Below, piece after piece: positions 1,477-49,125 of a stretch of 64,000 nt of DNA. Location of the stretch: assembly GCA_036381515.1 (NCBI GenBank), contig DASVCR010000054.1, forward strand, positions 6,811-70,810, written 5' to 3'. Position numbers and translations under genes: made by a program. Origin of the DNA: Gammaproteobacteria bacterium. Lineage in GTDB: Bacteria; Pseudomonadota; Gammaproteobacteria; Steroidobacterales; Rariloculaceae. The notes under the pieces are model-generated. The model worked only from the letters and a program-made list of their open reading frames with translations. It searched no databases and was not told the DNA's origin. Position 1 is the stretch's first letter. Each line of letters begins with the position of its first letter.

Positions 1477-1518
1477 GTGTCAGACACCTTTTTCGCTTGC
1501 GAAAAAGGTGTCTGACAC
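1477..1518. repeat. REP-like palindromic doublet (type A, copy 1)
   Basis: GTGTCAGACACCTTTTTCGC-TT-GCGAAAAAGGTGTCTGACAC, perfect 20-bp stem. Confidence 0.95.
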
Positions 1519-5459: not shown

Positions 5460-5501
5460 ACGTTCATCGACGACGCGCCGCGTGCCAGAATCTCCGCCGC
5501 A

Positions 5502-6182
5502 ATGAATCTGCTCGCGCTCGAAACCTCGAGTCCCGTCGGCTCGATCGCGCTGCTCTGCGGCGACGACGTGCTCGAGCGCTTCATCGAGACGCCGCGCGAG
5601 CAGACCGACCTCGTGCTGCCGTTCGTCGACGACGTGCTCGACGCGGCGGGACTCGCGCTGCGCGACCTCGACGCGGTCGCGTTCGGTCGCGGTCCCGGCT
5701 CGTTCACGGGCCTGCGGATTGCCGCGGCCGTCACGCAGGGCCTCGCGTTCGCGTCGGGCGTGCCGGTCGTCGCGGTTTCGAGCCTGGAGGCGCTCGCGCA
5801 GCGCGCGTGGCGCGAGCTCGGCGTCGACGACGCGCTCGTCTGCGTCGATGCGCGGATGCGGGAAGTCTATGCCGCGCGCTACGTCGTCCGGCGGGGCCGC
5901 GCGGCGCTCCGCGGCGAGGAGCGGCTGTGTCCGCCCGAGGCGCTGGTCGCGCCGGGCGGCGTCGACGGCGACGGCTGGACGGCCGTCGGCAGCGGCTTTG
6001 CGGCGTACGCGGATGTGCTCGCGCCGCTCGCCGGCCGTGCGGCGCGCGTCGTGCCGGACCTCGTGCCGGCCGCTCGTGACCTCCTCGTCGCCGCGGCGGA
6101 CGACGTCGCGGCCGGGCGGTTCCTCGCGCCCGAGGCGGCGTTGCCGGTGTATCTGCGCGACGAGAACGCCTGGCGCCGCTAG
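5502..6182 (+). CDS. tsaB: tRNA threonylcarbamoyladenosine biosynthesis protein TsaB
   Basis: LALETSS, GRGPGSFTGLRI, DARMREVY, PVYLR. Confidence 0.96.
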   Translation: MNLLALETSSPVGSIALLCGDDVLERFIETPREQTDLVLPFVDDVLDAAGLALRDLDAVAFGRGPGSFTGLRIAAAVTQGLAFASGVPVVAVSSLEALAQRAWRELGVDDALVCVDARMREVYAARYVVRRGRAALRGEERLCPPEALVAPGGVDGDGWTAVGSGFAAYADVLAPLAGRAARVVPDLVPAARDLLVAAADDVAAGRFLAPEAALPVYLRDENAWRR

Positions 6183-6187
6183 CCCGG

Positions 6188-6237
6188 AAAATGTGTCAGA
6201 CACCTTTTTCGGCCGAAAAAGGTGTCTGACACATTTT
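6188..6237. repeat. REP-like palindromic doublet (type A, copy 2), perfect 50-bp palindrome
   Basis: AAAATGTGTCAGACACCTTTTTCGG|CCGAAAAAGGTGTCTGACACATTTT. Confidence 0.95.
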
Positions 6238-6340
6238 TCCGGCGGAATTGGGGTCAGAGCCCATTTCTCTGCGAAATCGGGGTCAGAGCCCATTTCCTGA
6301 CCGGGAAGAGGCTCGGAGGACGAGCGGCCCCTGACCCAAC

Positions 6341-6422
6341 TTGGCTAACCCCCAGCTTCAGGACGCCTTGGCTAACCCCCAACTTTAGGAAGCCTTCAGT
6401 AACCCCCAACTTCAGGAAGGCC
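6341..6422. repeat. 27-bp tandem repeat x3
   Basis: TTGGCTAACCCCCAGCTTCAGGACGCC / TTGGCTAACCCCCAACTTTAGGAAGCC / TTCAGTAACCCCCAACTTCAGGAAGGCC. Confidence 0.9.
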
Positions 6423-6712
6423 TTTTCTCGGAGATTCCGTCAGCGGAAATGGGCGCAGAGGAATCTGGGGTCAGAGCTTTCGTTCGTGCGGAAAGTGGGA
6501 AACTGAGGGCAGAGCCCGCTCTCGGAAGTTGGGGCAGAGATGGGTCAGCGCCCCTTTTCCACGGACGGAGTCTCTCGACGCAGTTTCAAGTTTTCTCTGA
6601 GCTAATTCCCAAAGGGCTCTGCCCCGATTTCCGCATGCTGGCCCTAATTGCCATGCGGCAACCGGCTCTGGCCGGATTCTCCCGGGAAAGAGCCGCCCCC
6701 AATGTCTCCGCC

Positions 6713-6818
6713 TGGCTCTGACCCGAGTTTCGTCTGGAAAAGGGCTCTGACCCGAGTTTCGTCTGGAAATGGGCTCTGACCCGAGTTTCGTCTGGAAAAG
6801 GGCTCTGACCCCAATTTC
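6713..6818. repeat. 29-bp tandem repeat, about 3.6 copies
   Basis: GGGCTCTGACCCGAGTTTCGTCTGGAAAW units starting 6713, 6742, 6771, 6800. Confidence 0.95.
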
Positions 6819-6820
6819 GG

Positions 6821-6854
6821 CGTTCACCCCTCTGTAACATTGTGAAGCTGTAAT
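6821..6854 (+). promoter_or_regulatory. Putative Pho box plus -10 for phoBRU
   Basis: CGTTCAC-CCCT-CTGTAAC (7-4-7, cf. CTGTCAT consensus) followed exactly 10 bp later by TGTAAT. Confidence 0.55.
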
Positions 6855-6886
6855 GACCGGCGCCGGTTGAGCCGAGCGATCCCGCC

Positions 6887-7579
6887 ATGACGGAAAAGAA
6901 GGTTTTGGTCGTCGAGGACGAAGAGCCGATCCGCGATCTGCTGCGTTTCAGGCTTGCGCGCGCCGGCTACGCCGTCGTGCCGGCGGCGACGGGTGCCGAG
7001 GCGCGGGCCGCGATCGCCGACACGCGTCCCGACGTCATCCTGATGGACTGGATGTTGCCGGACGTCAGCGGCCTCGAGCTCACGAGAGAGCTGAAGCGTG
7101 ACCCCGCGACGCGCGAGATTCCCGTGATCATGCTGACCGCCCGCGCGCAGGAGGACGACCGCGTCGCGGGGCTCGAGGGCGGCGCGGACGACTACGTCGT
7201 GAAGCCGTTCTCGCCGCGCGAGCTCCTCGCGCGGATCAAGGCGGTGATGCGGCGCGGCACGGTCGAGGACGACGAGCTGCTGACCGCGGGCCGCCTCGTG
7301 CTCGACCCGGCGAGTCACCGCGTGATGGTCGACGGGGAGGAGGTCGCGCTCGCGCCGACCGAGTTCAGGCTGCTCAAGTTCTTCATGGAGCATCCCGACC
7401 GCGTCTACAGCCGCGCGCAGGTCCTCGATCGCGTGTGGGGCGGCAACGTCTATGTCGAGGAGCGCACGGTCGACGTGCACATTCGGCGACTGCGTCAAGC
7501 CTTGACCCCTTTCGGATACGATAGACTCATTCGCACCGTCCGAGGGGCCGGCTACGGGTTTTCGCCGGATCGAGCGTGA
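6887..7579 (+). CDS. phoB: Phosphate regulon response regulator PhoB
   Basis: VVEDE, LMDWMLP, GADDYVVKPFSPREL, VWGGNVYVEERTVDVHIRRLR. Confidence 0.97.
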   Translation: MTEKKVLVVEDEEPIRDLLRFRLARAGYAVVPAATGAEARAAIADTRPDVILMDWMLPDVSGLELTRELKRDPATREIPVIMLTARAQEDDRVAGLEGGADDYVVKPFSPRELLARIKAVMRRGTVEDDELLTAGRLVLDPASHRVMVDGEEVALAPTEFRLLKFFMEHPDRVYSRAQVLDRVWGGNVYVEERTVDVHIRRLRQALTPFGYDRLIRTVRGAGYGFSPDRA

Positions 7580-8904
7580 GACTGCCGAACCGCTGGGTAT
7601 CGCAACTCGGGATCCTGACCGCGTGGCTCGGCGCAGCGCTGCTGCTCGGCCTGTGGTTCGGCGGCGTGAGCTGGTGGCTCGCCGGCGCGCTCGCGCTCTA
7701 CCTCGGCCACGTGCTGCGGCAGGTGTATCTGCTCGACCGCGTGCTCGAGGGCGAGAAGCGTCTGCCGAGCTTCGAGACGCGCGGCCTCTGGGCCGAAATG
7801 TTCGCCCGCGTCGACAAGATCCGTGCGAAGGCGCGCAGCCGGAAGAAGAAGTATCACCGGCTGCTGCGCGAGGTCTGGGAGAGCACGGGTGCGCTGCGCG
7901 ATGCGGGCATCATCCTGAACGCGGCGCACGAGATCCTGTGGTTCAATCCCGCGGCGACGCGCCTGCTCGGCCTCGATCCGTCGCGGGACATCGGCAACCG
8001 GATCGACAACCTCGTCCGCCACCCGGCCTTCGTCCGGCACCTGTCGAACCCGCAGGGCGAGGACGTGACGATTCCGTCGCCGCATCGGCCCGACTGCTGG
8101 CTGTCGATCACGTTGATTCCGTACGGACAGAACCAGCGGCTCGCGATCGTTCGCGACGTTACGCGGCAAATGAAGCTCGAGACGATGCGGCGCGATTTCG
8201 TCGCGAACGCGTCGCACGAGCTCAGGTCGCCGCTGACGGTGATCAGCGGCTACCTCGACGCGCTCGCGGACGACGACGAGCTGCCAAAGAGCTGGCGGCA
8301 GCCGGTCGCGGAGATGCAGCGCCAGGCGGACCGGATGACTCGAATCCTCAAGGATCTGATCGAGCTGACTCGCCTCGAGTCCGCGGAGCCGAGCGCGCGG
8401 CAGGACTTCGTCGACGTGGCCGCGCTGCTCGAGCAGATCGTCGGCGAGTTCCGCAGGCGGTCGGAAGGCAGGACGATCGAGCTCCACGTCGAGACCGACG
8501 CCGCGCTGCTCGGCAAGGAGGTCGAGATCCACTCGATCGCGTACAACCTCGTGCACAACGCCGTGCGGTTCACGCCGCCGTCCGGCCGCATCGACGTGAC
8601 GTGGCGCGCGGACGGCGACGGTGCCGCGCTCGTCGTCGCGGACACCGGCATCGGCATCCCGCAGGATCAGATTTCGCGCGTGACCGAGCGCTTCTACCGC
8701 GTCGATCCGGGCCGCTCGCGCGCGACCGGCGGCACCGGGCTCGGGCTCGCGATCGTGAAGCACGCGCTGCAGCGCCACGGCGGCACGCTCGAGATCGAGA
8801 GCCGCGTAGGCGAGGGCAGCACGTTCACGTGTCGCTTTCCGGCGGCGCGGATCGCGCATCGGGACGAGGCCGCGCGCAAGGCGTCCGCGCGGGCCGTCGT
8901 ATAG
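7576..8904 (+). CDS. phoR: Phosphate regulon sensor kinase PhoR
   Basis: N-terminal TM, PAS, DFVANASHELRSPLTVISGY H-box, ERFYRVD, GGTGLGLAIVKH. Confidence 0.96.
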   Translation: MRLPNRWVSQLGILTAWLGAALLLGLWFGGVSWWLAGALALYLGHVLRQVYLLDRVLEGEKRLPSFETRGLWAEMFARVDKIRAKARSRKKKYHRLLREVWESTGALRDAGIILNAAHEILWFNPAATRLLGLDPSRDIGNRIDNLVRHPAFVRHLSNPQGEDVTIPSPHRPDCWLSITLIPYGQNQRLAIVRDVTRQMKLETMRRDFVANASHELRSPLTVISGYLDALADDDELPKSWRQPVAEMQRQADRMTRILKDLIELTRLESAEPSARQDFVDVAALLEQIVGEFRRRSEGRTIELHVETDAALLGKEVEIHSIAYNLVHNAVRFTPPSGRIDVTWRADGDGAALVVADTGIGIPQDQISRVTERFYRVDPGRSRATGGTGLGLAIVKHALQRHGGTLEIESRVGEGSTFTCRFPAARIAHRDEAARKASARAVV

Positions 8905-8943
8905 AATTCGCCTGAGCCGCGCGAGCGCGGCGGGAGTCGGCCG

Positions 8944-9684
8944 ATGGAAGTCGAAGACCTGGGTCACCACATCTCGAGACGGTTCAACGAGGACCTCGAG
9001 CGCGTCCGCAACTCGGTGCTGACGATGGGGGGGCTCGTCGAGGACCAGCTCGATCGCGCGATGCGCGCGCTCGCGGAGGCCGACAGCGAGCTGGGGCTGC
9101 AGGTCGCCGAGAACGACGCGAAGGTCAACAAGATGGAGGTCGCGATCGACGAGGAGTGCAGCCGCATCCTCGCGACCCGCGCGCCGACCGCCGGGGACCT
9201 GCGCCTGATCATCGCCGTCATCAAGACGATCACCGATCTCGAGCGGGTCGGCGACGAGGCCGAGAAGATCGGCGTGCTGGCCGCGCGGCTCGCGGGCCAG
9301 GAGCGCCCGTCGACGAACTACCGGGAGCTGCGCAACCTCGCGCAGCACGTGAAGGAGATGCTGCGCGGCGCGCTCGACGCGTTCGCGCGCCTCGATGCGA
9401 AGGCGGCGCTCGCGGTCGTGAAGGCGGATGACGTCGTCGACGAGGAGTACGAGTCGATCTATCGTCAGGGGCTGACGTTCATGATCGAGGATCCGCGGAC
9501 GATCTCGCGCGTCATGGACACGATGTGGGTCGCCCGGGCGCTCGAACGGATCGGCGATCATGCGAAGAACATCTGCGAGTACGTGATATTCATGGTGCAC
9601 GGCAAGGATCTGAGGTATACGGGGCTCGAGCACATCGAGGCGGAGGTGCAGGAGGCGGTGCGCCGTCGGGAGAGCCGCTCGTGA
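8944..9684 (+). CDS. phoU: Phosphate signalling complex protein PhoU
   Basis: HHISRRFNEDLE, PTAGDLR, TDLERVGDEA, LERIGDHAKNICE. Confidence 0.97.
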   Translation: MEVEDLGHHISRRFNEDLERVRNSVLTMGGLVEDQLDRAMRALAEADSELGLQVAENDAKVNKMEVAIDEECSRILATRAPTAGDLRLIIAVIKTITDLERVGDEAEKIGVLAARLAGQERPSTNYRELRNLAQHVKEMLRGALDAFARLDAKAALAVVKADDVVDEEYESIYRQGLTFMIEDPRTISRVMDTMWVARALERIGDHAKNICEYVIFMVHGKDLRYTGLEHIEAEVQEAVRRRESRS

Positions 9685-10217
9685 TCGCCGTGGCCGGCGC
9701 GGCGCCGCGGCAGTGGTTCGGGACGCGCGGCGGGCGGCGGCTCCTGAACGGCATCGGCTTCCTGATCGTCGCCGCGCTGATGGGGTATGCGCTCTATGCG
9801 GAGCACGTCCTCGGGCTCGCGCCGTGTCCGCTCTGCATCTTCCAGCGGGTCGCGATGATCGCGCTCGGCTTCATGTTCCTTGCCGCGGCGCTGCATGCGC
9901 CGACCGGGTGGGGCGCGCGCGTGTACGCGGGCCTCGGCGCGATCGTCGCGCTGACCGGTGTCGGCATCGCGGGGTGGCACGTGCGGATGCAGAACCTGCC
10001 GCCGGACGCGATCCCGAGCTGCGGTCCCGGCCTCAACGTCTACTTCGAGACGCTCCCGGTGCTCGAAGCGCTGCGCGCGGTCTTCACGGCGTCCGGCGAG
10101 TGCTCGGAGGTCAACTGGACCTTCCTCGGCCTCAGCATGCCGGCGTGGGTGCTGATCTGGTTCGTGCTGCTCGGCGCGCTCGCCGTCGCCGCGAACTGGG
10201 CGCGCGTCTCCCGCTGA
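9681..10217 (+). CDS. dsbB: Disulfide bond formation protein B
   Basis: PCPLCIFQR, second Cys pair (SCGPG...GECSEV), FLGLSMPAW; GTG start overlaps the phoU stop (GTGA). Confidence 0.93.
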   Translation: MIAVAGAAPRQWFGTRGGRRLLNGIGFLIVAALMGYALYAEHVLGLAPCPLCIFQRVAMIALGFMFLAAALHAPTGWGARVYAGLGAIVALTGVGIAGWHVRMQNLPPDAIPSCGPGLNVYFETLPVLEALRAVFTASGECSEVNWTFLGLSMPAWVLIWFVLLGALAVAANWARVSR

Positions 10218-10225
10218 AATCGCGC

Positions 10226-10279
10226 GAAAATTGTGTCAGACACATTTTTCCCCGGAAAAATGTGTCTGACACAATTTTC
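10226..10279. repeat. REP-like palindromic doublet (type A, copy 3), downstream flank of the Y1 transposase
   Basis: GAAAATTGTGTCAGACACATTTTTCC-CC-GGAAAAATGTGTCTGACACAATTTTC, perfect 26-bp stem. Confidence 0.95.
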
Positions 10280-10291
10280 CGTGTTTCGCCG

Positions 10292-10984
10292 TCAGCTCGT
10301 CCGCCGCGGCGGCCGCCCCCTTTTCCTCTTCACGAGCGGCCGCTGCACGGCGGTTTCCAGGCTCTGCCTGAACGCGTCATCGCCAGTCGGTACGCTATCG
10401 TTCAGGCCTTCCCGGATCCTCTGCACCGTTTCCTCCGGCAGCCTTTCGCAAATCAGCTCGCGATACCGGGCGGCCCTTTCGAACGGTGTCGGCCCGAGTA
10501 ACAGAAAGGTCGGGTGCGGAGCGATCAGGGAGGACGGGGCGCCCGTGGAGTTGACGCGGCAGCTGCTCCACGGATACGCATCTGGGCGCCGGACGATCCC
10601 GGCCCGGACCGGGTTCAGCTCGATATAGCGATAGCACGCGAGACAGTAATAGTCGGCATCGATGGGTGAGGCATGGAAACGGCTCTCCCACAACGATCCG
10701 GTACGCGCGTAGCGCGCGTTGAAGTGGGCGGAATAGCGGCCGGAGACGTACTGCAGGAGGCGCGAGACGCCGTCGGGAAGCCGCGACGTCAGAAGCAGGT
10801 GCACGTGATTCGTCATCAAGACGTAGGCATGGACGCTGGTCTCAAAACGACGTGCGCCTGTGCGAAGGAGGGACAGATAGTCCACGAAGTCGCGCCGGTC
10901 CAGAAACGTCGCATCCCGGTTGTGCCCGCGTTGGACGACGTGGAACGTCAAGCCTGACAGACGAATCCGGTGTGCTCGGCCCAT
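10292..10984 (-). CDS. HUH Y1 transposase (REP-associated tyrosine transposase-like)
   Basis: FHVVQRGHNR, HAYVLMTNHVHLL (HUH), LWESRF, RYIELNPVRAG (catalytic Tyr), YPWSS, C-terminal KRGRP; start taken at MGRAHR. Confidence 0.92.
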   Translation of the reverse strand: MGRAHRIRLSGLTFHVVQRGHNRDATFLDRRDFVDYLSLLRTGARRFETSVHAYVLMTNHVHLLLTSRLPDGVSRLLQYVSGRYSAHFNARYARTGSLWESRFHASPIDADYYCLACYRYIELNPVRAGIVRRPDAYPWSSCRVNSTGAPSSLIAPHPTFLLLGPTPFERAARYRELICERLPEETVQRIREGLNDSVPTGDDAFRQSLETAVQRPLVKRKRGRPPRRTS

Positions 10985-11068
10985 GACGGAGGGTGCAGGA
11001 ACCAGACCCGACGAGCGTAGTACGCCCGGGAGCTCGCCTGCAGCCGTCAATCCCGCCGCGACATCGAG

Positions 11069-11120
11069 AAAAATGTGTCAGACACGATTTTCCGTGGAAA
11101 ATCGTGTCTGACACATTTTT
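11069..11120. repeat. REP-like palindromic doublet (type A, copy 4), upstream flank of the Y1 transposase
   Basis: AAAAATGTGTCAGACACGATTTTCC-GT-GGAAAATCGTGTCTGACACATTTTT, perfect 25-bp stem. Confidence 0.95.
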
Positions 11121-12250
11121 TAGAGGAGCAGGCGCTCGGCGATCCGGAAGTAGATCCGCTCGAGGCGCTCGAGGTCCTCGATCGCGACGCACTCGTCGAC
11201 CTTGTGGATCGTCGCGTTCAACGGGCCGAGCTCGACGACGTCGATGCCGTAGGGCGCGATGAAGCGGCCGTCCGACGTGCCGCCGCTCGTCGAGAGCTCT
11301 GGTGTAAGGCCGGTCTCGTGCGCGACGGCTTCGTCGACCGTCTCGGTCAGCCTGCCGGGCGCCGTCAGGAACGGCTCGCCGGCGACGCGCCACCTGATCG
11401 TGTAGTCGATGCCGAGCCGCTCGAGCTCGGCCTCGACGCGTGCGGCCAGCGACTGCGCCGTCCACTCGGTCGAGTAACGGAAGTTGAAGCGGCAGTTGAG
11501 CTCGCCCGGGACGACGTTCGGCGCGCCGGCGTCGGAATGCACGTTCACCATCTGAAACGTCGTCGGCGGGAAGTGCGCGTTGCCCGCGTCCATCGGCTCG
11601 CGCGTGATCGCCGCGACGAAGCGCGCGAACGCATGCATCGGGTTCTCGGACGCGAGCGGATACGCGACATGACCCTGGACGCCGCGCACCGTCAGGAACC
11701 CGGTCAGCGAGCCCCGGCGCCCGATCCGGACCGTGTCGCCGAGACGCTCGCTGCTCGACGGCTCGCCGACGATGCAGTAGTCGAACAGCTCGCCGCGCGC
11801 CGCGAGGCGCTCCATGACCTTGAGCGTCCCGTCGTCGGCCGCGCCTTCCTCGTCGCTCGTGATCAGGAGCGCGATCGACCCGGGCGCGTCCGGATACGCA
11901 GCCGCGAACCGCTCGGCGGCCTTGATCATCGCCGCGAGGCTGCCCTTCATGTCCGCCGCGCCGCGGCCGATCAGCATCCCATCGCGCACCGTCGCCGCGA
12001 ACGGCGGCGCGCACCACTGGTCCTCGGGACCGGGCGGCACGACGTCGGTGTGGCCGGCGAAGACGAGGACCGGGCGCCCGGTGCCGCGCCGCAGCCACAG
12101 GTTGTCGACCGGACCGAAGCGCATCGGCTCGGCCGTGAACCCGGAGGCCGAGAGCTCTTCGGCGATCAGCGCCTGACAGCCGGCATCGTCGGGCGTCACG
12201 GACGGACGCTGGATCAGTGCGCGCGCGAGCGCGACGAGGTCGAGGCTCAC
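11120..12250 (-). CDS. dapE: Succinyl-diaminopimelate desuccinylase
   Basis: SVTPDDAGCQ, FAGHTDVVP, GRGAADMKGSLAAM, TSDEE, GRRGSL, QGHVAYP, GGTSDGRF; GTG start after GGAGG. Confidence 0.96.
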   Translation of the reverse strand: MSLDLVALARALIQRPSVTPDDAGCQALIAEELSASGFTAEPMRFGPVDNLWLRRGTGRPVLVFAGHTDVVPPGPEDQWCAPPFAATVRDGMLIGRGAADMKGSLAAMIKAAERFAAAYPDAPGSIALLITSDEEGAADDGTLKVMERLAARGELFDYCIVGEPSSSERLGDTVRIGRRGSLTGFLTVRGVQGHVAYPLASENPMHAFARFVAAITREPMDAGNAHFPPTTFQMVNVHSDAGAPNVVPGELNCRFNFRYSTEWTAQSLAARVEAELERLGIDYTIRWRVAGEPFLTAPGRLTETVDEAVAHETGLTPELSTSGGTSDGRFIAPYGIDVVELGPLNATIHKVDECVAIEDLERLERIYFRIAERLLL

Positions 12251-12355
12251 GCCGGCCCCTCCATGATTTTCCGCGCGAAGGATCGAGCACAACCCATTGA
12301 TCTTACGAGGCCCTCATGCCGTCCGCCCGCGTCGACCGGCGGCCACGGCGCCGGC

Positions 12356-12389
12356 CTGCAACAATTCCGTAACATTCGTCGACTACCTT
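12356..12389 (+). promoter_or_regulatory. Putative Pho box plus -10 for pstSCAB
   Basis: CTGCAAC-AATT-CCGTAAC (7-4-7) followed exactly 10 bp later by TACCTT. Confidence 0.65.
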
Positions 12390-12399
12390 TCGGCCCGTC

Positions 12400-13476
12400 A
12401 TGCGAGCCGACGACTTCCCGTCAGCGCCCGTCGTCCGTGCCGTCGCGGCGCTCCTGCTCGCGCTCGCGACCGCCTCGCCGGCGGCGGCGCAAATCGCCCG
12501 CGACTATATCAACATCGTCGGCTCGTCGACGGTTTATCCCTTCGCGACCGTCGTCGCCGAGCGCTTCGGGCGCGCGACCCGCTTCAAGACGCCGAAGGTC
12601 GAGGCGACCGGCAGCGGCGGCGGCATCAAGCTGTTCTGCAACGGCCTCGGCGTGCGCCACCCGGACATCGTGAACTCCTCGCGGCGCATCAAGCGGAGCG
12701 AGATCGAGAGCTGCGCCCGGAACGGCGTCCGCGAGGTCGTCGAGTTCGTCGTCGGCTACGACGGCATCGTCCTCGCGTCGTCTCGAGATGCGAACCCTAT
12801 CTCTCTGACGCTGCAGCAAGTCTACCTCGCCCTCGCGAAGCACGTCCCGGATCCGTCGGGCGCCCCGCGGCTCGTCCCGAATCCGTATCGCCGGTGGTCC
12901 GACCTCGATCCGAAGCTTCCGGGCGCCGAGATCGAGGTGCTCGGGCCCCCGCCGACCTCCGGCACGCGCGACGCGTTCCTCGAGCTCGCGATGGAAGGCG
13001 GGTGCGGCACGTTCGAGCTGATCCGGTCGCTCGGCGACGACGAGCGCCTCGTCGCGTGCCACACGCTCCGCGAGGACGGCGCGTATGTCGAGGCCGGCGA
13101 GAACGACAACCTGATCGTGCAGAAGCTGAACGCGAACCCGAACGCGCTCGGCATCTTCGGCTACAGCTTCCTCGATCAGAACGGCGACCGTGTCCGCGCC
13201 GTCGCGATCGACGGCGTCGAGCCGACCTTCGAGACGATCGCCGATTCCAGGTATCCGATCTCGCGGCCGCTGTACTTCTACGTGAAGAAGGCGCACGTCG
13301 GCGTGATCCCGGGCATCGAGGGGTACCTCCGCGAGTTCATGAGCGAGGCCGCGGCGGGCGACTACGGTTATCTCTCCGATCTCGGGCTCGTGCCGCTTCG
13401 CGAGAACGAGCGCCGGGAGATGGTCGAGCGGATCGAATCGCTCGAGTCCCTGCAGCTCGCGAACGTCACACGATGA
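12400..13476 (+). CDS. pstS: Phosphate ABC transporter substrate-binding protein
   Basis: Signal peptide, VGSSTVYPF, TGSGGG, GPPPTSGTRDAF, YPISRPLYFY. Confidence 0.95.
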   Translation: MRADDFPSAPVVRAVAALLLALATASPAAAQIARDYINIVGSSTVYPFATVVAERFGRATRFKTPKVEATGSGGGIKLFCNGLGVRHPDIVNSSRRIKRSEIESCARNGVREVVEFVVGYDGIVLASSRDANPISLTLQQVYLALAKHVPDPSGAPRLVPNPYRRWSDLDPKLPGAEIEVLGPPPTSGTRDAFLELAMEGGCGTFELIRSLGDDERLVACHTLREDGAYVEAGENDNLIVQKLNANPNALGIFGYSFLDQNGDRVRAVAIDGVEPTFETIADSRYPISRPLYFYVKKAHVGVIPGIEGYLREFMSEAAAGDYGYLSDLGLVPLRENERREMVERIESLESLQLANVTR

Positions 13477-49100: not shown

Positions 49101-49125
49101 ATCGTGTCAGACGCCATTTTTTCCC
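49101..49125. repeat. Degenerate single type A unit
   Basis: ATCGTGTCAGACGCCATTTTTTCC; contains the stop codon of the upstream glycosyltransferase frame. Confidence 0.65.

Follow-up and report, generated by a model that had tools for sequence, protein, structure and literature searches.

A domesticated HUH transposase gene of the TIRYT branch between dsbB and dapE, and the abundant flanking repeat family it probably maintains

The window, i.e., the whole stretch of 64,000 nucleotides that was analysed, belongs to a 4.57-Mb genome (G000) and contains a gene for an HUH/Y1 transposase with an inverted doublet of repeats on either side. Units of these doublets are built around the core GTGTC-W-GACAC (family A). 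The features are as follows:

9681..10217, plus strand: dsbB, left neighbor of the Y1 gene
10226..10279: downstream family-A doublet (cores at 10233 and 10262), 12 bp past the Y1 stop codon
10292..10984, minus strand: TIRYT-type HUH/Y1 transposase gene, 230 aa, assigned by motifs, profile and structure model
11069..11120: upstream family-A doublet (cores at 11075 and 11104), touching the dapE stop codon
11120..12292, minus strand: dapE, right neighbor of the Y1 gene
1477..1518, core to core: dispersed family-A doublet (cores at 1477 and 1508)
6193..6232, core to core: dispersed family-A doublet (cores at 6193 and 6222), with a family-B cluster directly after it
6250..6812: family-B cluster; family B is GGGGTCAGAGCCC, the same family that flanks the Y1 paralog on contig C17
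49104..49114, plus strand: lone degenerate family-A core with one mismatch, not a doublet

A sequence-only reading of the window had described an intact 230-aa reading frame with an HUH motif and a catalytic tyrosine, lying between dsbB and dapE with no tnpB, and all of this was confirmed. The frame runs from 10984 to 10292 on the minus strand with zero internal stops, and tnpB cannot fit at the junction because the gap between the two neighbors is only 0.9 kb. The protein carries N59-H60-V61-H62, R119-Y120-IELNPVRAG (YIELNP at 120-125), WE at 99-100, WSS at 139-141 and RGRP at 222-225 within a basic tail, and it scored 46.1 bits with Pfam Y1_Tnp (cut-off 23). In a 56-row alignment H60 and H62 were invariant and Y120 was present in 54 rows. 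An AlphaFold model based on this alignment (pLDDT 92.8) consists of an HUH core, a C-terminal extension of three helices and the flexible basic tail. Its best solved structure, by fold and by profile, was E. coli TnpA-REP (4ER8), and a structural match indicated that the HUH/Y1 fold is common to this protein and IS200/IS605 TnpA. Scores were below the cut-offs of NCBIfam REP_Tyr_transpos (72.3 vs 80 bits) and of the IS200 model (21.3 vs 55 bits). The guide-binding Q95 of E. coli TnpA-REP aligned with E in the window protein. Among 80 related loci, 59 encoded proteins ending in GRP, 37 of them in RGRP, which is the core of the AT-hook; the term AT-hook was not mentioned in the RAYT literature searched, in which few subscription papers were covered.

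The gene occurs once in the genome. As that reading had expected, it is not one of multiple near-identical IS200-like copies: the sole other Y1 gene is the paralog on contig C17 (G000:C17:21741-22457), which is 58% identical and is flanked by family B (370 copies). Both genes had unusually low GC3 (1.8th percentile for the window gene, 0.2th for the paralog). No sigma-70-like promoter was found in 10150-11200 and no Rfam match within 5500-12500. A contig assembled from a public sequencing run, which may be the window's own source, spans 10147-11177 with zero differences.

The doublets were located as previously described, 12 bp past the stop codon and 84 bp before the ATG, and their arms are 100% complementary (10226-10251/10254-10279, 26 nt each; 11069-11093/11096-11120, 25 nt). 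Their folding z-scores were -9.3 to -10.7, with 0 of 200 shuffles as good, whereas lone 25-nt units formed imperfect, weak hairpins (-5.3 and -3.9 kcal/mol). The inverted pair around the gene extends over 53 nt with 87% complementarity. A terminator-like score was obtained on three of the four strands of the two doublets, including both strands of the upstream one. Further copies had been placed at 1477, 6188 and 49101; the first two are doublets, the second one beginning at 6193, but the third is a degenerate singlet at 49104. The family-B cluster at 6250-6812 has a TsaD-fold gene (5502-6182) on one side and a response-regulator gene (6887-7579) on the other.

In the whole genome we counted 292 exact family-A cores, compared with ~1.4 expected. 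Outside the core the consensus is AAAAT(T/C/G), and the absence of a GTAG or CGTC tag, noted earlier from the window, was thus borne out. Conservation is higher in the inner T-tract than in the outer A-tract. Doublets are polarised: 119 neighbor pairs consisted of GTGTCAGACAC followed by GTGTCTGACAC and 2 were reversed (one mismatch allowed), with spacings clustering at 27-38 and 57-67. Arms matched each other better within a doublet than between doublets (0.64 vs 0.36 at offset -1 and 0.95 vs 0.58 at offset +12; 115 polarised doublets, 200 shuffles). The inner arms of the two doublets beside the gene are minority variants, seen in 6 and 4 of 115 doublets, and the best 21-mer of these doublets has only 8 occurrences; therefore, they are not a master template. 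The flanking 16-mer count was 52 for the window gene and 198 for the C17 paralog.

The spacers of 37 long A doublets measured 32-42 nt and, on average, resembled each other no more than shuffles did. The possibility that they are decayed middle units was dropped, as their similarity was barely above that of shuffles (5.1 vs 4.6). Long doublets of both A (32-42 nt) and B (28-38 nt) have a spacer length of ~35 nt with free sequence. Families A and B were mixed in 40 of 281 exact-core clusters. Nested elements, in which a B doublet of ~60 nt lies exactly inside an A doublet at 17-20 nt from each A core, were seen at G000 C34:155032, C81:43729 and C81:59983.

Gene positions were obtained with a crude purpose-written gene caller (3825 genes). 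By this measure, repeats occupied 217 of 2693 intergenic regions (8%), including 73 of 478 convergent (15%) and 25 of 593 divergent ones, and were mostly close behind stop codons, with 40 units inside called genes. Perfect tandem duplications of part of a unit, comprising the outer arm and some of the core, were present beside 39 of 731 units of families A and B, compared with 6 of 3000 random places. An attempt to map a cut site from them did not lead to a single site, since both ends vary (relative to the T of TCAG, outer ends fall at -8 to -17 and inner ends mostly at -2 to +5) and 16 cases were on the inner side.

On the motifs and length given in Table 1 of Quentin 2018 (first row of subclass 2.1; PMC6006769), the window gene is a TIRYT/TIRtron, i.e., TnpA-Y1 subclass 2.1.1 or RAYT Group 1. 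Quentin et al. regard this subclass as the same as Group 1 of Bertels and as probably the same as Di Nocera's TIRYTs. NHVH, W[EQ] (here WE), YIELNP, SS, a length about 238 aa and the C-terminal extension are all present, and low copy number and divergent paralogs are further points of likeness (PMC6006769; PMC5581495). The designation of the locus as REPtron-like was therefore correct in that the gene is RAYT-like and single-copy, but this is not a canonical GTAG REPtron; it falls in the already described TIRYT/TIRtron branch, in which absence of the GTAG tag is the rule (Di Nocera 2013, PMC3733652). TIRtrons/TIRYTs, together with dispersed, partly self-complementary TIR families, were described in 2013. 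Like the window locus, they have an HUH/Y1 gene with long inverted repeats at its flanks that are unrelated to GTAG REPs; some TIRs have a GGGGWSAS-type motif, and some, e.g., those of S. maltophilia ORF 1152, are self-complementary and scattered in the form of dimers or clusters (PMC3733652). Here the dispersed form amounts to 292 cores and 115 polarised doublets, and the GGGGWSAS motif is matched at 6 of 8 positions by window family-A units and at 8 of 8 by families B and C at orthologous genes. Terminal inverted repeats were detected at 56 of 78 related loci (those of the 80 with enough flank, two of which repeat genus genes) and at 1 of 60 control flank pairs; in 28 of the 56 relatives GGGGWSAS was exact. 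Co-clustering of TIR types with protein clades was set aside as evidence of specificity, because the two are linked in cis.

Several properties distinguish this genus from published descriptions. Copy numbers are 143-370 here, whereas the TIRtron families were termed "moderately abundant", and the available text of that paper reports neither family switching at one locus nor a site comparison (PMC3733652). In the accessible text of Quentin 2018, no REP-like sequences occur beside subclass 2.1, the second largest TnpA-Y1 subclass, found in 14.9% of strains (PMC6006769), in contrast to the window gene. The mean flanking 16-mer count of Group 1 was 12 in Bertels 2017, as far as its available text goes (PMC5581495), compared with the 52 and 198 given above. 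The cognate word, 12-16 nt long, had 2-77 copies (median 8) in 15 outside genomes that contain a related gene, and high repeat abundance is thus not general for such genes. The parts of the literature compared contained no substrate test for subclass 2.1. In a search that covered few subscription papers, the term TIRYT was scarcely used, and queries on the repeat words, on repeat replacement and on work since 2019 gave nothing relevant.

To relate genes to repeats we searched ten genomes of the genus for Y1 genes and for families A, B and C (C being GGGGTC-W-GACCCC), which have the same GTCAG core and are distinguished by one to three core bases. The copies of A/B/C were:

G000: 292/370/3; genes flanked by A and by B
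G008: 213/8/0; gene flanked by A
G002: 1/8/276; gene flanked by C
G003: 0/227/0; gene flanked by B
G009: 1/297/1; gene flanked by B
G007: 0/143/1; gene flanked by B
G005: 129/103/163; gene flanked by C
G001: 0/5/0; no Y1 gene found
G004: 2/5/1; no Y1 gene found
G006: 3/1/1; no Y1 gene found

All 8 Y1 genes in these ten genomes, which as kin are not independent counts, were located beside a family with 143-370 copies in the same genome, and the three genomes in which no Y1 gene was found (85-93% complete) had at most 5 copies of each family. Repeat count thus follows gene presence, a comparison that had been proposed from the window. In the reverse direction, 8 of 10 abundant populations were accompanied by a gene; the exceptions are the 129 A and 103 B copies of G005, which has no gene flanked by A or B. 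G000 has two Y1 genes and two families, and each gene has its own family at its flanks. The eight proteins formed one clade, with an SH-aLRT of 90 that is below the starred level, in a quick 86-row tree; 5 of the 80 related loci, being duplicates or broken, were not included in it.

The gene has a fixed address. A Y1 gene was present at dapE-dsbB in G000, G008, G002, G003 and G009, with 54-77% protein identity, and was flanked by A, A, C, B and B, respectively. The family-A repeats are absent from the orthologs in G002, G003 and G009, but sister families occupy the same positions. Orthologs without these repeats had been named in the sequence-only reading as a finding that would refute it; the result goes halfway to this, and in an informative manner. 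As for an empty junction in relatives, no gene and no repeat were found there in G004, G006 and G007, whereas G005 had one A doublet and no gene, and in G001 the junction was rearranged. As the dapE tree is weak, this distribution is compatible with several losses as well as with one re-acquisition. The second gene has a neighbor common to G000 and G005, and one common to G000 and G007. Between G000 and G005 the second gene is 86% identical, yet its flanks are B in G000 and C in G005; of 226 codons, 56 differ silently and 32 with a change of amino acid, which suggests purifying selection.

Outside the genus we observed two genomes of another genus of the family, G011 (98% complete) and G024 (77%), with 347 and 145 copies of the pooled motif, respectively; the other 29 of 31 outside genomes had at most 25. 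Despite these many repeats, no match to the 56-row profile was found in G011 or G024. Matches to dapE and dsbB were also absent from both, so the Y1 locus may be unassembled.

Orthologous sites were compared with the closest relative, G005, of which 1.54 Mb of ~4.6 Mb was covered (syntenic blocks 84-93% identical). By both flanks, 51 of 267 clusters of G000 and 44 of 61 of G005 were mappable. The orthologous site held a repeat for 39 of the 51 G000 clusters and for 40 of the 44 G005 clusters, compared with an intergenic occupancy of 8% (15% for convergent regions). The family had changed at these old shared sites: all 10 mapped family-C clusters of G005, one of which is the gene's own flank, were at sites where G000 has A or B. 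In alignments, the spacer was conserved and the units were fresh in one genome and decayed in the other. Mutated A cores amounted to 23 of 54 in G005 vs 39 of 311 in G000 (p about 1e-6), and mutated C cores to 0 of 34 in G005, whereas family B had no such contrast (90 of 417 in G000 vs 7 of 30 in G005, p 0.8); these counts were summed by hand, and in both genomes a variant of the central base may have been included twice. Six hybrid cores, C-type in the outer half and A-type in the inner half, were found in the compared part of G005 and 1 in all of G000; 4 of the 6 made up both arms of two doublets, though the numbers are small. Mapping of empty sites for target duplications was dropped: no insertion boundary could be fixed, because unoccupied G005 sites were too diverged (84-93%) and several "empty" sites were decayed copies. 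No excision joint was found in contigs of four public runs. The one joint between doublets, in which one side measures 20 bases and additional letters are present, probably represents another doublet.

Taken together, these data make it probable that the window gene is a domesticated HUH transposase of the TIRYT branch, resident at dapE-dsbB in five genomes, that maintains the ~290-copy family at its flanks. Across related genomes, such genes and repeat families appear to rise, switch and decay together. Several results speak against this reading: the many repeats of G011 and G024, the A and B copies that G005 retains, the lack of a decay contrast for family B, the minority variants beside the gene and the low counts of the cognate word in outside genomes. 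The sequence-only reading had named the gene the mobiliser of the GTGTC-W-GACAC family. The comparative data do tie the gene to family A, but "mobiliser" is too narrow, since most sites are old, are common to the relative and look renewed in place. HUH enzymes form a 5'-phosphotyrosine link that is resolved by a 3'-OH (Corneloup 2021, PMC8266576). By analogy with this family, the window protein would nick single-stranded repeat DNA through Tyr120 and re-join it by strand transfer. Judging from the scars, most events would refresh or exchange units where a repeat is present beforehand, and fewer would found new sites. Because both arms are matched, part-units are duplicated and older families are overwritten, the gene's repeats are likely kept fresh through in-place rewriting of old ones. 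Doublets probably persist because they are located just past stop codons and may act as two-way terminators. It may be speculated that exchange occurs at the central TCAG, and that the A/T tracts next to the core are recognized by the RGRP tail in the manner of an AT-hook. A broader version, which we consider doubtful, is that Group 1 RAYTs run full repeat-population systems mainly as in-place editors, which would cut at or near TCAG, place their own outer half onto both arms and rewrite terminator-like hairpins family by family without moving them, with the AT-hook-like RGRP tail replacing the GTAG guide.

The enrichment of repeats between convergent genes over divergent ones, their position a few bases past stop codons and the three terminator-like strands could also be explained by insertion at hotspots. 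According to this explanation, which seems unlikely, the enzyme or some other process drops whole doublets at permissive sites past stop codons, where the hairpins are kept as terminators; shared sites would reflect repeated independent insertion and loss rather than rewriting, and the doublets beside the gene would be ordinary copies. Unrelated repeat families at the dapE 3' end in two other genomes, G010 and G014, favor some hotspot contribution. However, the spacers of long doublets are unique in sequence yet conserved at orthologous sites, and thus whole doublets are not copied around. Insertion at hotspots also does not fit the hybrid cores on both arms of two G005 doublets, and it leaves the match between a gene's flanks and the abundant family of its genome unexplained. 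In G010 the junction (L219, G010:C7, just past 29673) has GTGG-headed REP-like palindromes unrelated to A-C. In G014 (L220, G014:C1) a fourth TIR family, GGGGACAGTGACCC, lies past the dapE 3' end, where a phoU-like gene faces dapE with no dsbB between; this family also flanks G014's own, more distant Y1 gene (L096).

Since A, B and C share the GTCAG core, it is conceivable, though still less probable, that either paralog acts on all three families in trans and that the window gene is one of two maintainers. Mixing of A and B in the same clusters, retention of A in G005 with only a C-flanked paralog, and the 6 hybrid cores in that genome vs 1 in G000 are consistent with such shared service. On the other hand, G002, G003, G007 and G009, where the only gene is flanked by B or C and there is no history of A, have 0-1 A copies, and hybrids are almost absent from G000 even though both genes are there. 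The reading of the gene as a recently inserted autonomous IS200-like element, whose ends would be the doublets and whose MITEs would be the dispersed copies, is very improbable and largely refuted. In its favor, four genus genomes lack the gene at the junction, GC3 is low and 20 plasmid or chromid records carry distant relatives. Against it, there is one copy only, its paralog is just 58% identical, five divergent orthologs share one address, the motif is Y---NP rather than Y---Q with an IS200 score far below cut-off, and four public assemblies yielded no excision joint.

The preferred reading, a resident enzyme that maintains its flanking family, is close to what is known of REPIN-RAYT systems of Groups 2 and 3, in which extragenic inverted doublets reach hundreds of copies and their abundance tracks the cognate gene (PMC3686654; 10.1101/2024.10.14.618302; 10.1101/2022.05.22.493013; PMC8266576). 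Different repeat classes at syntenic genes ("orthoswitch") and repeat decay after gene loss in GTAG-type systems (Nunvar 2013, PMC3686654), as well as apparent overwriting of repeats at conserved sites (REPORTH, 10.1101/2024.10.14.618302), were reported previously, and family switching and overwriting are already published for Group 3 RAYTs. The genus differs in its enzyme group, in the extra C-terminal domain and in spacers that are unshared between copies. In addition, the hairpin foot lacks the GT[AG]G of the canonical REPtron, having AAAAT(T/C/G) outside the core. IS200/IS605 TnpA differs in organization: the window gene has no Y---Q motif, no tnpB and no identical copies, and its ends are symmetric. 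In their available texts, RAREFAN (10.1101/2022.05.22.493013) and REPORTH tie only Groups 2 and 3 to such repeats, excluding Group 1 from repeat populations. The class of the locus is already known; what the genus appears to add is a clean natural experiment in which the Group 1 branch shows the behavior of a complete REPIN-RAYT system. It supplies matched enzyme-repeat pairs for A, B and C, plus a loss case and a switch case, which make specificity, the cut site and the spread or overwriting of repeats directly testable.

Among the related loci, a clade of 14 members (L016, L021, L022, L025, L031, L038, L042, L048, L049, L057, L059, L062, L067 and L081) has mostly one shared TIR and a GGDRKS-type tail instead of RGRP. 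It spans distant taxa, one of them outside Pseudomonadota, which suggests horizontal spread.
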